A stretch of DNA of 64,000 bases from a virus (Duplodnaviria > Caudoviricetes), in the IMG/VR virus record IMGVR_UViG_3300027991_000080, positions 12,741 to 76,740 of that record. The stretch is one strand, 5' to 3'. A model generated the notes under the pieces. The model searched no databases and was not told the DNA's origin. It saw nothing but the letters and a program-made list of their open reading frames with translations. This document shows positions 42,406-59,166 of this stretch, piece by piece. How positions within the stretch are numbered: the stretch's first letter is position 1; the number at the start of each line of letters is the position of its first letter. The position numbers were made by a program, and so were the translations under genes.

Positions 42406-42663
42406 ATGCAGGTAGTCATCACGAAAGGGCAGCTCGAGGCGGTCAAGGCGTGCAACGTTTACCTCGACTCCCCAGAATGGGACGCGCTCGAGGAAAGCCT
42501 CGTGTACGCGAACTGGGAGGCTACCGTTGAGCGATTGCTGGCAACGCGAGCTGGATCTTCGTATCTCGCGTTTCTGGTTTCGAGAGAACTCGTTCCGATG
42601 ACGATGACGGAGTTCAAAGCAGCGCGAACCGCGCGGGAGCGAACGACGACCCATGGCATTTAG
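42406..42663 (+). CDS. Hypothetical protein
   Basis: 85 aa in operon. Confidence 0.65.
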   Translation: MQVVITKGQLEAVKACNVYLDSPEWDALEESLVYANWEATVERLLATRAGSSYLAFLVSRELVPMTMTEFKAARTARERTTTHGI

Positions 42664-43159
42664 AATTGGGCGCAAGTACGCGCAGCACACATATCCGGAG
42701 CCTCGCAGAAGTGGCGGCGTTACCCCGGATGAGTTCGCGAGAAATTTTGCGGTCGGTCCGGCCACTGACACCGACATCACGACGACTACCCCGCTACCGT
42801 GGTCTGACGTCGACGTTGGGGCTCCCGGGAACAGTGTGACGATCACTCCGGAGAGTACGGGTGTAGTCCGCGTCTTGGCGGTGATGACGTTCAAGAACCC
42901 TTCTGGAGCCGACACAGTGGATGCGGTCGTCCAGATCCTTCTGGATGGGGTGGCTCAGGCTTTTCCAAACAATGAGACGTTCACCGTGCCCATCAACGGT
43001 GGTCTTGTGGTTCCGATGCTGGTTGAGCTCGATGGGCTCAATGTCGGCCAAGCGTATGCGATCGGAATACAAGTAAGCACGAGCGATTCCGCGACTCTGA
43101 GAATCGTTCAGGAGTCGTCTTCGATCGAGGTGCAAGAAGTCGAAGAATCGACAGGGTGA
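42653..43159 (+). CDS. Beta-sandwich virion decoration protein, YP-leader family 1
   Basis: MAFRIGRKYAQHTYP; paralog of 43164..43682. Confidence 0.8.
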   Translation: MAFRIGRKYAQHTYPEPRRSGGVTPDEFARNFAVGPATDTDITTTTPLPWSDVDVGAPGNSVTITPESTGVVRVLAVMTFKNPSGADTVDAVVQILLDGVAQAFPNNETFTVPINGGLVVPMLVELDGLNVGQAYAIGIQVSTSDSATLRIVQESSSIEVQEVEESTG

Positions 43160-43163
43160 AGCG

Positions 43164-43682
43164 ATGTCCTTTCGAAGCGGCAGGAGACTAGCGCGGCACA
43201 CGTACCCGGAGTTCCCCCGGGGCGGAGGAAGCTCGTCCGGACCGTTTGCCCGAAACTACGCCGAAGGACCCAGTACCGACACAACGATCGATGTCGATCC
43301 TGGTATACAGCTACCATGGTCGAACGTCGCGGTGGGTTCTCCGGGTGTGAATATTCCAATTACACCTCTGTCCACCGGTGTTGTTCGGATATCCGGAACG
43401 ATCGTTACTCGCAACGATACCACTGACCCAGAGACTCAGTCTGGTCTGCAGGTGCTCGTGCAAGTGGACGGAGCGTCTCAAACGTTTCCGTTCTTCGAGG
43501 CCCCATCTACTGAAATCGCGAGCGGTCAAGCGATCCCGTTCCTGGCTGAAGTTTCAGGTCTAGCGATCGGGGTTCAATCGAACATTTCCATTTTGCTCAT
43601 CGCTCAAGATGCGAACGGAGCCGTACTACAAGAGCTGAGTTCATCGATCGAGGTGATCGAAGTAGCTGCATCTACCGGTTGA
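43164..43682 (+). CDS. Beta-sandwich virion decoration protein, YP-leader family 2
   Basis: MSFRSGRRLARHTYP; shares FARN.A.GP.TDT, LPWS.V.VG.PG, ITP.STGVVR, SSIEV with upstream gene. Confidence 0.8.
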   Translation: MSFRSGRRLARHTYPEFPRGGGSSSGPFARNYAEGPSTDTTIDVDPGIQLPWSNVAVGSPGVNIPITPLSTGVVRISGTIVTRNDTTDPETQSGLQVLVQVDGASQTFPFFEAPSTEIASGQAIPFLAEVSGLAIGVQSNISILLIAQDANGAVLQELSSSIEVIEVAASTG

Positions 43683-43695
43683 ACTGGAGAAAACG

Positions 43696-56246: not shown

Positions 56247-58055
56247 ATGAACTTCCCACCGTACCCCGGAACACTAGGCAGCGCTGGCACGTTGTCGGCA
56301 GCAGCTCTTCGAGGTCGCGCGATTGGTGACAGTCTCCAGTCGGGACAGTCCCTTCAAAAGGGACAGAGTCTTCTCAGCAAGAACGGCGACTACGAGCTCG
56401 TGATGCAGTCAGACGGAAACTTCGTCCTGTATAGTCGCGATCTAGGTGCTCAGGGGGCCATCTGGAGCACTGGTACGTACAAGGGTTGCGTTGGACAGTA
56501 CGTAGCTATGGGGACCGATGGAAATCTGGTCGTTTACGGGTCACGACCATGCTGGGCAAGCAACACTCAAGGACACTCCGGAGCAAGGCTCATCGTTCAA
56601 GACGACGGCAACACTGTCATCTACGACACTGCCAACAAAGCGATCTGGACATCTGGAACCGAAGGCGGATACCCGCCCGGCGAAATGGAGCTGTTCAAGT
56701 GGCGCGACACATTCTTGGCGCTCAAGTCTGAAATCGACAAGTACACGGCATCGCATCCGAGTTCTACTACGCAGAACGATCAGAAGCTTGCCGACTACAT
56801 GTTGAAGGTTCAAAACCTTCAGAGACACGGTCCGCACGATGCCTTCGGCGAGGCGCTTCGCTCTGGCATCACTGACACCTTCGGAGCAATCACGAAGATC
56901 CCTGTACTCGGACCAGTGATCAGTGCTGCAGTTGCGCCTCTCTCCATGACGGTGAGTCTTTCGCATGGTGAGCGCATCGATCATGCGCTGCTCGACGCTG
57001 CGAAGTCTCAGCTTGGAGCAATCAAAGCCGTTGCTCCTTACGCGGCTGCCATCGTTTCCTTCATTCCTGGCATCGGTACCGGGATTGCGGCAGCCCTAGC
57101 CGCGGGTATAGCCCTTGCGGAGGGAAAGCCGATCGATCAGGCGCTCGAGGAGGCCGTCAAGGCGGCCATACCTGGCGGCGCACTCGCGGTGACCGGGTAC
57201 GAGCTCGCCAAGAAGGTGGCAAGCGGACAGAACGTCGGAAAGGCGGTTCTCGAGGCCGCTCGCTCACAGCTCCCGCCGGCGGCACAGAAAGCGTTCGATG
57301 TCGGTCTCGCGGTGGTATCCGGCAAACAGATACAAGATGCGATCACGACAGCCATCGTGAACCTTGCGCCTGCAGAGGTGAAACAGATCATCGACACCGG
57401 CGCGAAGGCGATTCAAGCTGTCCCGGGACTCGCGAATATTGCGAAGTCGTTGCCGACCGACGTCGCTCGACAGGGTCTGCAGCTAGCGTCCGGAGCATTC
57501 GCTCGCGCCGGTGTGAATGAAGCGCAGATCCGAGCAATGCGTTCGCAGCTGACCGGCGACATGTTGAAGGGATTCGATGCTGCGCTAAAATCACAAGAGG
57601 CCCACTTCCCATGGGCGTCAAACGTCACCTCAGCTCCTCCGGCGCCGGCGCCGGGAGGACCAACGCAAGCACAGCTAGACCTGCAAGCTCTGTCCAAACT
57701 ATCTCCTGAACAGCAGAAACAACTCGTCGACCTGCAGGCTCTCTCGAAGCTCACTCCGGAGCAGCAGAAGCAGCTCGTAGACATGAAAAAGTTGTCGGAG
57801 CTGACGCCAGATCAACAGAAACAACTGGTTGACCTGCAAGCGTTGTCGAAACTCTCTCCGCAGCAGCAAAAAGACCTGGTCGCCTACGCCGAGGCGCAGA
57901 AGAAAGGCACCGCTACTCCTGTTGTCGCGACGAAATCGGTCACTTCGATACCCGCGAAGACGACAGCGATAAAGCCCGTCACCGCTGCGGCAACGGTAAC
58001 GACGGCACCTGTCGCGCCGACGCCTTCGAAGTACCCACCGTACCCACCGATGTGA
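56247..58055 (+). CDS. Bulb-type (GNA/B-) lectin fused to hydrophobic helical domain and 17-aa repeats
   Basis: MQSDGNFVLY, MGTDGNLVVY, VQDDGNTVIY motifs; start MNFPPYP at 56247. Confidence 0.9.
   Translation: MNFPPYPGTLGSAGTLSAAALRGRAIGDSLQSGQSLQKGQSLLSKNGDYELVMQSDGNFVLYSRDLGAQGAIWSTGTYKGCVGQYVAMGTDGNLVVYGSRPCWASNTQGHSGARLIVQDDGNTVIYDTANKAIWTSGTEGGYPPGEMELFKWRDTFLALKSEIDKYTASHPSSTTQNDQKLADYMLKVQNLQRHGPHDAFGEALRSGITDTFGAITKIPVLGPVISAAVAPLSMTVSLSHGERIDHALLDAAKSQLGAIKAVAPYAAAIVSFIPGIGTGIAAALAAGIALAEGKPIDQALEEAVKAAIPGGALAVTGYELAKKVASGQNVGKAVLEAARSQLPPAAQKAFDVGLAVVSGKQIQDAITTAIVNLAPAEVKQIIDTGAKAIQAVPGLANIAKSLPTDVARQGLQLASGAFARAGVNEAQIRAMRSQLTGDMLKGFDAALKSQEAHFPWASNVTSAPPAPAPGGPTQAQLDLQALSKLSPEQQKQLVDLQALSKLTPEQQKQLVDMKKLSELTPDQQKQLVDLQALSKLSPQQQKDLVAYAEAQKKGTATPVVATKSVTSIPAKTTAIKPVTAAATVTTAPVAPTPSKYPPYPPM
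57669..57872 (+). repeat. Four tandem 51-bp coding repeats (QLVDLQALSKLSPEQQK)
   Basis: Units at 57669, 57720, 57771, 57822. Confidence 0.9.
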
Positions 58056-58065
58056 ATAGGCAAAA

Positions 58066-58236
58066 ATGGCAAGCAAAAACGACACTATCCCGGCGTGGCT
58101 CCCATTCGGGATCGTTGCGTCATTCTTGGTGGCGATCGCTGCCGGCGCCAGATCCAGTTGGAAGACGGCTGCGGACCAGTCTGCGACCAAATCCGGCGCG
58201 CTACAGGATTGGGCCGGTCTGAGCCGTCTGACCTGA
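58066..58236 (+). CDS. Small membrane protein (56 aa, not in ORF track)
   Basis: MASKNDTIPAWLPFGIVASFLVAIAAGA... Confidence 0.55.
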   Translation: MASKNDTIPAWLPFGIVASFLVAIAAGARSSWKTAADQSATKSGALQDWAGLSRLT

Positions 58237-58344
58237 AATTCTTTATAAAAAACTGAAACTTACAACCAACGATCGTCGACGCTGGGGCGGGCGCTTGCTC
58301 TCGCAGAAGCGAGACTGCTATCCTAGCGAAAAAAGAGGTGCGAA

Positions 58345-59166
58345 TTGGGTCGCATAATCGGTAGAGGTCGCCATGCTAGCGAAACGTACCCGGAGCGCAG
58401 TCTAGCCACTGGCGGCGGCTCTACAGGCCCCACAGGGCCCTCTGGAGGACCAACCGGCAACACCGGAGCGACAGGCCCTGCAGGAGCAACAGGCGCCACC
58501 GGAGCGACAGGGATAACCGGTCCCACCGGCGCCGGAACAACCGGAGCGACTGGAGCCACTGGCACCCCCGGCAACACCGGATCCACGGGTCCCGCAGGCG
58601 GCGCATCGAACACTGGCGCGACGGGCCCCACAGGCCCTACCGGCAACACCGGATCCACGGGTCCCGCAGGCGGCGCGACGAACACAGGCGCTACGGGGCC
58701 TACGGGCGCGGGAACCGGAGCCACGGGACCCACCGGTCCGACCGGAGCTGGCTCGGGAACTGGAACCACAGGGCCAACAGGATCGACAGGTGCTACCGGC
58801 ATTACTGGTCCGACAGGTAGCTTTGGCGGCTCTCAATCCACCGGGAGCCGATCCAACAAAAGCATGGTTGCAAGCGTTACCGTTGCGGACGGAGATCTCG
58901 CTTGCGCAACAGCAGTTGCTACCACTCCGACTTCATCGAGTACGACAGGGGGATACGTTGGAGTGAGCGTAAACGGCTTATCTCAACTAACCGGCGACGG
59001 TACGAAGGTATCCGTCAACTGCTACTTTTCAGCAGACGGAGGAACGACAGCAAGAGCGATGAAGTCGATCGTTGCCGGAGATCTGCTTTATTGGAACGGA
59101 ACCGTTGCGGGTTTTCAACTCGCATCCACTGACCGCATCGACTTCCTCTACGACGTGAGCACATAG
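58345..59166 (+). CDS. Short collagen-like G-X-T fibre (YP-leader family 7)
   Basis: [16 protein letters not shown]; ~130 aa GxT tract; beta-rich C-domain. Confidence 0.88.

Follow-up and report, generated by a model that had tools for sequence, protein, structure and literature searches.

Seven plus-strand open reading frames (ORFs) of an uncultivated bacterial virus begin with the same short peptide, described by the pattern M-x3-4-G-[RK]-x6-7-Y-P, which probably docks the proteins that carry it on the virion. From the viral record of 76.7 kb (genome ~77 kb), a stretch of 64 kb, termed the window, was examined. A sequence-only reading of the window had ascribed a common N-terminal peptide of ~16 residues to seven proteins, and all seven were confirmed, at the positions given, by their N-terminal pattern (proteins are named by the first position of their ORFs):

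42653..43159, plus strand: small tagged protein A1, 168 aa; the tag comprises codons 1–15 (FRIGRK..HTYP subtype)
43164..43682, plus strand: small tagged protein A2, 172 aa; matches the tag profile, paralogue of 42653
43881..45119, plus strand: tag, linker and head B (probably a right-handed β-helix), 412 aa
45140..45592, plus strand: tag and small head C, 150 aa; body in only two related loci
45596..49180, plus strand: tag, ~780 aa of collagen-like G-x-T repeats and head B, 1194 aa; Pfam Collagen, 2.7e-72
49449..50438, plus strand: tag and head D, 329 aa; body nearly unique
58345..59166, plus strand: tag (TTG start), short collagen stalk and small head E, 273 aa; Pfam Collagen, 1.7e-9

The tag and the bodies behind it

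The tag has the consensus M-x-x-[IV]-I-G-R-G-R-Y-A-x-E-T-Y-P, and no similar peptide was present at any other N-terminus of the 64-kb window. A loose six-frame search of the window with the expression G[RK]-x5-7-YP gave 13 matches; seven were located 5–6 codons past the start codon of ORFs of 150–1194 aa, and the other six were not N-terminal. In an alignment of 40 tag sequences, G6 and Y15 were invariant and P16 was found in 39. A Met was present 3–6 residues ahead of the tag Gly in all homologues, placing the true starts at the tag and not downstream of it. For 58345, the frame upstream of the TTG codon is open for six codons only, and the tag is thus made from that TTG alone. Comparison of five leaders yielded 41 identical, 41 synonymous but different and 78 non-synonymous codon pairs, and the DNA identity was 0.59 within the tag versus 0.29 upstream and 0.35 downstream. 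Because half of the identical residues differ in codon, selection has acted on the tag at the level of the peptide and not of the DNA.

The 14 residues following the YP are composed of 66% G/S/A/P/T, in agreement with the linker claimed before. The lack of a signal peptide was likewise substantiated, since none of the hydrophobic runs in the first 40 residues of the tagged proteins exceeds six residues. The claim that the bodies differ holds in so far as they are unrelated or shuffled, but they represent five types and not seven: 42653 and 43164 form a paralogous pair (43% identity), and the C-terminal 400 aa of 45596 share 46% identity with the body of 43881. With regard to the kinds of bodies proposed, Pfam verified the long and the short collagen (PF01391; 238.9 bits for 45596 and 37.7 bits for 58345, cut-off 27.2), whereas the DUF1565-like head was not recovered, as 43881 gave no Pfam match even at E ≤ 5, DUF1565 included. 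The β-helix assignment derives from the ESM Atlas, where the model of 43881 reached TM values of 0.56–0.58 to Beta_helix/DUF1565 clusters over ~300 residues and, by features, 0.89 to the Pect-lyase_RHGA_epim cluster; as modeled, head B is probably a right-handed β-helix of the tailspike kind. Collagen stalks are trimeric, and β-helix spikes usually are.

Head B directly follows the tag in 43881 and is placed behind ~780 aa of collagen in 45596; in relatives it is preceded by ~1480 aa in L027 and by another domain in L014, and body A terminates a collagen protein in L013. The body family of A1, with a conserved C-terminus (..QEV..(S/A)TG), is present in 14 related loci, and the tagged bodies with collagen stalks range from 270 to 1858 aa. 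When nine further tagged bodies from relatives were searched against Pfam, the only matches were one to collagen (22.2 bits, cut-off 27.2) and one to an endosialidase N-terminal family, both below the threshold.

Distribution of the tag and the capsid-like proteins

The seven leaders were turned into a profile HMM, with which 21,475 candidate N-termini from the window and related loci were searched (E < 1e-3). As the earlier proposal had envisaged, the tag is conserved in relatives: 43 non-redundant tagged ORFs were identified in 17 loci, all with the tag at the N-terminus and all on the strand of the capsid genes. In 15 related records searched whole, the numbers of profile matches per genome were 6, 6, 6, 6, 3; 1 (weak), 3, 2, 5, 4; and 0, 0, 3, 2, 0, amounting to 2–6 tag copies per genome in 11–12 of the 15; divergent copies were found in at least one further related record. 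A back-translated DNA pattern of the tag matched seven stretches in all of IMG/VR (2.9 million viral contigs), each on a contig that also has a homologue of 37106 (listed below), and among viral contigs the tag is restricted to this lineage. A search with residues 1–40 of 43881 against 5.8 billion proteins retrieved only the query itself, which was too short for the tool. The lineage comprises soil and peat viruses, an abundant group as yet undescribed, with hosts probably among Myxococcota and Binatia.

Distant relatives (29–33% identity in the 443-aa protein 37106) had no tag within 10 kb, and the complete relative G011 (43–46% identity) had no profile-level tag; thus, the tag is not common to the entire capsid family. 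A presumed clade without tag or 62-aa gene (L017–L022 and L029) was rejected, because both turned up in whole-record searches, separated from the capsid genes by more than 10 kb, and the argument from clade-specific co-occurrence of the two was withdrawn.

Three proteins encoded upstream of the tag genes form a conserved capsid-like trio:

37106..38437, plus strand: jelly-roll protein, 443 aa, the most conserved protein of the lineage (AF2 model, conservation)
38527..40023, plus strand: two conserved β-rich proteins of 201 and 295 aa (38527 and 39136), in all 31 loci

The identity of 37106 is 65–83% across the 31 loci, except for the two most distant ones (43%), and the median identities of 38527 and 39136 are 70% and 63%, respectively. 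The AF2 model of 37106 (pLDDT 86.7) adopts a jelly roll and not an HK97 fold; an earlier model from a shallow alignment had a pLDDT of 55, and its fold matches were not used. The best VIA Z values of 5.0–5.8 were obtained for viral jelly-roll capsid proteins interspersed with sugar-binding jelly rolls: SPV1 (Z 5.8, 150 aa aligned, rmsd 4.7) and PBCV-1 (Z 5.8) tie with non-viral sugar-binding proteins, and the match to PRD1 P3 is weak (Z 5.6, 152 residues aligned, rmsd 5.4). On this model, 37106 is a candidate for the major capsid protein. For 37106, Foldseek retrieved nothing from the PDB or BFVD at E ≤ 1e-3, no penton base was among its 50 best fold matches, and tblastn found no counterpart in 50,697 phage records. 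For 38527 and 39136, no Pfam, PHROG or PDB sequence match was obtained; profiles of all three proteins retrieved nothing meaningful from the PDB sequences, profile–profile comparison revealed no relationship among them, and single-sequence PDB searches with 31721 and 35510 gave nothing.

When the 76.7-kb record was searched in full and in six frames with Pfam models, Terminase_6N, TerL_ATPase, Phage_capsid and Phage_portal had no match at E ≤ 1, while control genomes gave matches in the same searches; very divergent versions of terminase, portal or HK97 proteins could escape them. FtsK_SpoIIIE likewise had no match at E ≤ 1 in six frames, so an FtsK-type packaging ATPase was not detected. Among the recognised genes of the window, a Walker A motif was found only in a helicase (346–1998). 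From these data, we infer a tailless virion; a literature search retrieved no described tailless jelly-roll virus of comparable size.

Readings of the tag

The shared peptide, its conservation, the starts sited at the tag and the linker all fit a docking tag. The trio is constant (median identities 63–71%) and the tagged bodies are patchy (1–16 loci, 35–50% identity), as is usual where a constant particle carries variable receptor-binding proteins, and collagen and probable β-helix bodies are of the exterior-appendage kind, which also counts for docking. In such an arrangement, the tag would be followed by a flexible Gly/Ser/Ala/Pro/Thr-rich linker, an optional collagen stalk of variable length and a C-terminal head; a trimeric collagen or β-helix fibre would display three tags, and a single conserved socket on the particle would receive the tags. 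Heads binding the host or polysaccharides could then be swapped in a changing panel, the particle itself remaining unchanged. The tag would thus bind the particle, with 37106, 38527, 39136 and the 62-aa protein 43696 as candidate sockets. Co-folding of the first 40 residues with 37106, 39136 and 38527 gave ipSAE values of 0.00 in both runs, which, without oligomers or controls, speaks neither for nor against binding. Co-variation of the core proteins with the tag type was limited to 0–5 uninformative columns per protein, and no T4 gp10-like branching domain, adaptor or penton homologue was recognised in the structural block with the general profiles of Pfam and PHROGs. Against docking, seven competing ligands are many if the sites are at 12 vertices only.

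Other partners and destinations of the tag were weighed with the genes located between and next to the tag genes:

43696..43884, plus strand: acidic protein of 62 aa with Cys, encoded where the variable run of tag genes begins
49177..49446, plus strand: hydrophobic protein of membrane type, 89 aa, encoded within the cluster of tag genes; 18 related loci have homologues, no significant Pfam family
50737..55568, plus strand: two glycosyltransferase-type genes between tag genes; by Pfam HtrL_YibB-like, and methyltransferase with GT2 and TPR

The tag might serve as a handle by which an assembly factor or a modifying enzyme, and not the particle, recognises the proteins, the partner being the 62-aa protein as a chaperone or the TPR glycosyltransferase decorating the Thr-rich stalks; such a handle may or may not remain in the mature fibre. 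We regard this as unlikely, even though the 62-aa gene is present in exactly one copy in every profile-searched genome that has tag genes at profile level, in most loci lies directly upstream of such a gene and is missing from the complete relative G011, in which no profile-level tag was found; this co-occurrence could reflect mere shared ancestry. The 62-aa protein, a candidate adaptor or assembly factor, belongs to no Pfam family, and a likeness to DUF397 was dropped, as Pfam gave no support. The position of the two glycosyltransferase genes would suit a handle, since TPR repeats are peptide-binding modules, and so would the G-x-T collagen repeats, which resemble the glycosylated repeats of BclA. 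However, the GT2-TPR part, present in four of five complete relatives, is missing from G001 with its six tag matches, and small non-collagen bodies are tagged as well. A chaperone handle and a docking tag are compatible with each other.

An export or cell-surface signal, by which an infected or lysogenic cell would release the proteins or display them, so that they would not enter virions, would be in line with the classification of the record as a provirus with an integrase at its end, and with the abundance of membrane and wall-binding proteins in the module. This reading is quite improbable: the tag lacks a hydrophobic core (longest run of six in the first 40 residues) and a twin-arginine-type motif followed by an h-region, it occurs among viral contigs in this lineage only, and its genes belong to the structural block, where they are placed downstream of those for the capsid-like proteins. 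Hardly credible is a capsid-interior targeting sequence that would bring the proteins into the procapsid before being cleaved. It would share with the capsid targeting sequence of T4 internal proteins that it is short, strictly N-terminal and common to unrelated proteins, but collagen stalks and a probable β-helix spike are exterior structures, and no prohead protease was recognised.

The docking reading can be extended, more doubtfully, to a 'hairy' capsid, in which the tag would dock trimeric fibres on the jelly-roll capsomers of undescribed 73–120 kb tailless bacterial viruses without a known packaging motor, with up to seven heads displayed at once. Docking sites could then cover the shell and not just the 12 vertices, and no plug-in display system of this sort has been described from tailless viruses of prokaryotes. 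Should the tag serve as a docking plug, it would account for the swapping of host-recognition heads behind a constant particle in this group, and a 16-residue peptide that loads arbitrary cargo on a capsid would be a handy display handle. The tag is also a practical marker, by which receptor-binding genes of the lineage that otherwise escape annotation can be located.

Comparison with known docking systems

Modular docking had been held to be unfamiliar from prokaryotic viruses, which proved incorrect: tailspikes of phages K1-5, K1E and SP6 and secondary receptor-binding proteins of Klebsiella phages dock via conserved N-terminal peptides of at least seven residues (PMC6872550), and such peptides of phage receptor-binding proteins have been validated experimentally (PMC13352976). 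The docking peptides differ between phage groups (KP32, KP34, Menlow and PhiK64-1); they fix the receptor-binding proteins to one virion component and permit several specificities per particle (PMC6872550 and PMC13352976). As in these phages, a short N-terminal peptide is common to proteins with unrelated bodies (here seven proteins with five body types). In contrast, they are tailed, with an adaptor or the T4 gp10-like branching domain of a primary receptor-binding protein serving as socket, whereas here a tail, terminase, portal and HK97 capsid were not detected and a jelly roll was modeled for the most conserved protein. Moreover, the peptide sequences are unrelated, and up to seven proteins per genome bear the same tag here.

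PRD1 is tailless with a jelly-roll capsid, and its spikes are anchored at the vertex by the N-terminal part of the spike protein, the vertex complex comprising the P31 penton, the P5 spike with a collagen-like stretch, and P2. Its genome has 15 kb and encodes an FtsK-type packaging ATPase, in contrast to the 77 kb without a detected ATPase here, and there is no sequence similarity. Among jelly-roll-capsid viruses in general (double in PRD1-like, twin single in sphaerolipovirus-like viruses), a possible link is the jelly roll modeled for 37106; the FtsK/HerA-type packaging ATPase was not found here.

In the Bacillus anthracis exosporium, residues 20–38 of BclA fix a collagen-like trimer to the β-sandwich trimer of BxpB (PMC10470788). 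This pair also combines a collagen-like trimer, G-x-T-type repeats and a short N-terminal attachment part, but it belongs to a bacterial spore layer, uses another motif, and the N-terminal domain of BclA is cleaved first. The adenovirus fibre tail FNPVYPY, to which the tag had been likened, sits in a cleft of the penton base, an oligomer of a jelly-roll capsid protein (PMC8156859). The fibre likewise consists of an N-terminal tail, a trimeric shaft and a head, and Tyr-Pro is found in both motifs; the shaft is a β-spiral and not collagen, and a virion has one or two fibre types. As the sequence likeness ends with Y-P and no penton-base homologue was found here, the comparison stands as an analogy only. 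The tag peptide and the virus lineage are new, and the docking principle is already known from tailed phages and adenovirus; if the docking reading is true, the principle would reach beyond adenovirus and the small tailed phages and hold for a large virus whose capsid-like protein is a jelly roll.

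The shared N-terminal peptide

Seven plus-strand ORFs of the window (starting at 42653, 43164, 43881, 45140, 45596, 49449 and 58345) share a common N-terminal peptide with the consensus M-x-x-[IV]-I-G-R-G-R-Y-A-x-E-T-Y-P. A loose regular expression for this tag gave 13 matches in the six frames of the window: seven in these long ORFs, beginning 5–6 codons past the start codon, and six elsewhere, none of which was N-terminal. The claim of the sequence-only reading that seven ORFs share an N-terminal peptide was thereby confirmed. The sole possible start of 58345 is its TTG, with the frame open for just 6 codons 5′ of it and a GAGGTG located 5 bases upstream. 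Among five leaders, DNA identity was 0.59 in the tag versus 0.29 upstream and 0.35 downstream, and the codon pairs (n = 160) comprised 41 identical, 41 synonymous but different, and 78 non-synonymous ones. Thus, selection acts on the tag at the peptide level. The same figures rule out a recent DNA repeat or recombination site.

From 17 loci, an HMM built from the seven leaders retrieved a non-redundant set of 43 tagged ORFs, with the tag always N-terminal (43/43) and the ORF always on the strand of the capsid genes (43/43). In the tag alignment of 40 sequences, G6 and Y15 were invariant, and P16 was present in 39. Tag matches per whole record were 6, 6, 6, 6 and 3 in five records with an estimated completeness of 96–100% (two with direct terminal repeats), 1 (weak), 3, 2, 5 and 4 in five more, and 0, 0, 3, 2 and 0 in a further five; the profile missed divergent copies, e.g. 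a ..T-Y-E variant in the related locus L014. The back-translated DNA pattern of the tag was found in only 7 stretches among 2.9 million viral contigs (approximately 0.5 matches expected by chance, our own estimate), all on contigs also encoding a homologue of 37106, the 443-aa protein that forms a capsid-like trio with 38527 and 39136. The tag does not extend to the entire capsid family. In relatives with 29–33% identity in the 443-aa protein, no tag was found within 10 kb and the capsid-like gene trio was kept, and the whole-record search of the complete genome G011 (43–46% identity) revealed no profile-level tag.

In relatives with approximately 67% identity in the 443-aa protein, several ORFs that closely follow the capsid-like trio (L022:15058-19347; L020:15120; L017:17539; L019:14843-16032) have a second, different N-terminal peptide in common, S-R-x-G-R-P-V-x-G-F-G-x-G-D. 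As genomes with this peptide also have the Y-P tag elsewhere, a single virus may have both tag systems side by side. By eye, the N-terminal region of a 606-aa protein of the window (56235-58055) resembles that of a second-tag protein of L022; it is without the Y-P tag and gave a weak bulb-lectin match (B_lectin, E 0.0011, below cut-off).

Modular build of the tagged proteins

The bodies following the tag were described as all different in the sequence-only reading; they do comprise several unrelated types, but the seven proteins fall into five, A and B each occurring twice.

42653 and 43164 (+), body A, paralogues with 43% identity
43881 and C-terminal 400 aa of 45596 (+), body B, 46% identity
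45140 (+), body C
49449 (+), body D
C-terminus of 58345 (+), body E

The approximately 14 residues after Y-P consist to 66% of G/S/A/P/T. Tagged N-termini contain no hydrophobic run of more than 6 residues, which bears out the proposed absence of a signal peptide. Collagen repeats are present in 45596 and 58345. Head B was found directly behind the tag, behind approximately 780 aa of collagen, behind approximately 1480 aa of collagen (locus L027), and behind another domain (L014), and body A forms the end of a collagen protein in locus L013. Tag, stalk and head thus represent distinct modules. Head B gave no match in a Pfam search, and with TM scores of 0.56–0.58 over approximately 300 residues in an ESM Atlas model comparison it is probably a right-handed β-helix. 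The tagged bodies are patchily distributed (1–16 loci, 35–50% identity); the capsid-like trio is present in 31/31 loci with a median identity of 63–71%. Most of the small tagged proteins with body A share a conserved C-terminus, ..Q-E-V-x-x-(S/A)-T-G (43135-43159 and 43658-43682 in the window; homologues in at least 14 loci).

Virus type and genome

Neither Pfam nor PHROGs named a terminase, portal, capsid, tail or packaging ATPase. When all six frames of the entire record were searched with the Pfam families Terminase_6N, TerL_ATPase, Phage_capsid, Phage_portal and FtsK_SpoIIIE, nothing appeared at E ≤ 1; control genomes gave matches in the same searches. No packaging motor was recognisable in the window or in the first 12.7 kb of the record (bases 1-12740), which encode UvrD-type helicases, ParB, a PD-(D/E)xK nuclease and a Dam-type methylase. 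Among the recognised genes of the window, only a ResIII/DEAD helicase (346-1998) has a Walker A motif.

For 37106, which has over 440 homologues and 31 loci in IMG/VR, a model with a pLDDT of 86.7 was obtained from an alignment of 81 diverse sequences taken from 222 clusters. Its best fold matches were jelly rolls, namely the SPV1 capsid protein (Z 5.8, 150 aa aligned, rmsd 4.7), PBCV-1 (Z 5.8), PRD1 P3 (Z 5.6), and HHIV-2, Faustovirus and FLiP (Z 5.0–5.5), viral scores that tie with those of sugar-binding jelly rolls. No HK97 fold was among the matches listed. A tailless virus of the jelly-roll type is therefore likely.

The IMG/VR record (76,740 bp), of which the window covers bases 12741-76740, is classed as a provirus, estimated 95% complete, and its integrase lies at the 3′ end of the window.

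62921-64000 (−), tyrosine integrase

Complete relatives of 80–86 kb (records G002, G003 and G011) have direct terminal repeats, whereas the present record is classed as integrated; free as well as integrated forms seem to occur in the lineage. Inverted terminal repeats were observed in record G008. Relatives were placed in Polyangiaceae and Candidatus Binatia from MAG records. ARAGORN called a 97-nt tRNA-Arg(tcg) at 39019-39115 (−), inside the highly conserved gene 38527 but on the opposite strand; this is probably a false call. A 682-aa ORF at 35420-37468 (−) overlaps two conserved genes, 35510-37000 (+) and 37106-38437 (+), and is likely spurious in this 60% G+C DNA.

Proposed docking, possible glycosylation and known systems

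Two large glycosyltransferase-type genes are located between the tag genes.

Within 50737-55568, HtrL_YibB-like gene
Within 50737-55568, methyltransferase + GT2 + TPR gene

Together with the G-x-T collagen repeats, their position points to fibre glycosylation by the virus itself. The tag might be a handle for a glycosyltransferase, a rival reading weakened by record G001, which has six tag matches but lacks a homologue of the GT2-TPR protein. The best-supported reading, which we consider fairly probable, is that of a putative common docking tag on otherwise interchangeable appendages. The docking interpretation of the sequence-only reading is thus plausible and in part supported, namely by the shared, conserved N-terminal tag; the binding itself we infer. 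A candidate socket is the product of 43696, an acidic, Cys-bearing protein of 62 aa. All genomes that were searched with its profile and contain tags at profile level have exactly one copy, and in most loci a tag gene follows directly downstream of it; G011, without a profile-level tag, has no 43696 homologue. The link between 43696 and the tag is one of synteny and shared distribution only.

The docking-peptide principle is established in three systems. In tailed phages, it is known from K1-5/K1E/SP6 and Klebsiella phages (PMC6872550; PMC13352976); in adenovirus, the conserved fibre tail sits in a cleft of the penton base (PMC8156859); and in the Bacillus exosporium, BclA residues 20-38 sit on the BxpB trimer (PMC10470788). 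The novelty lies in the peptide as such, in how many proteins share the tag, and in its occurrence in a probably tailless lineage, apparently undescribed, with genomes of 73–120 kb.
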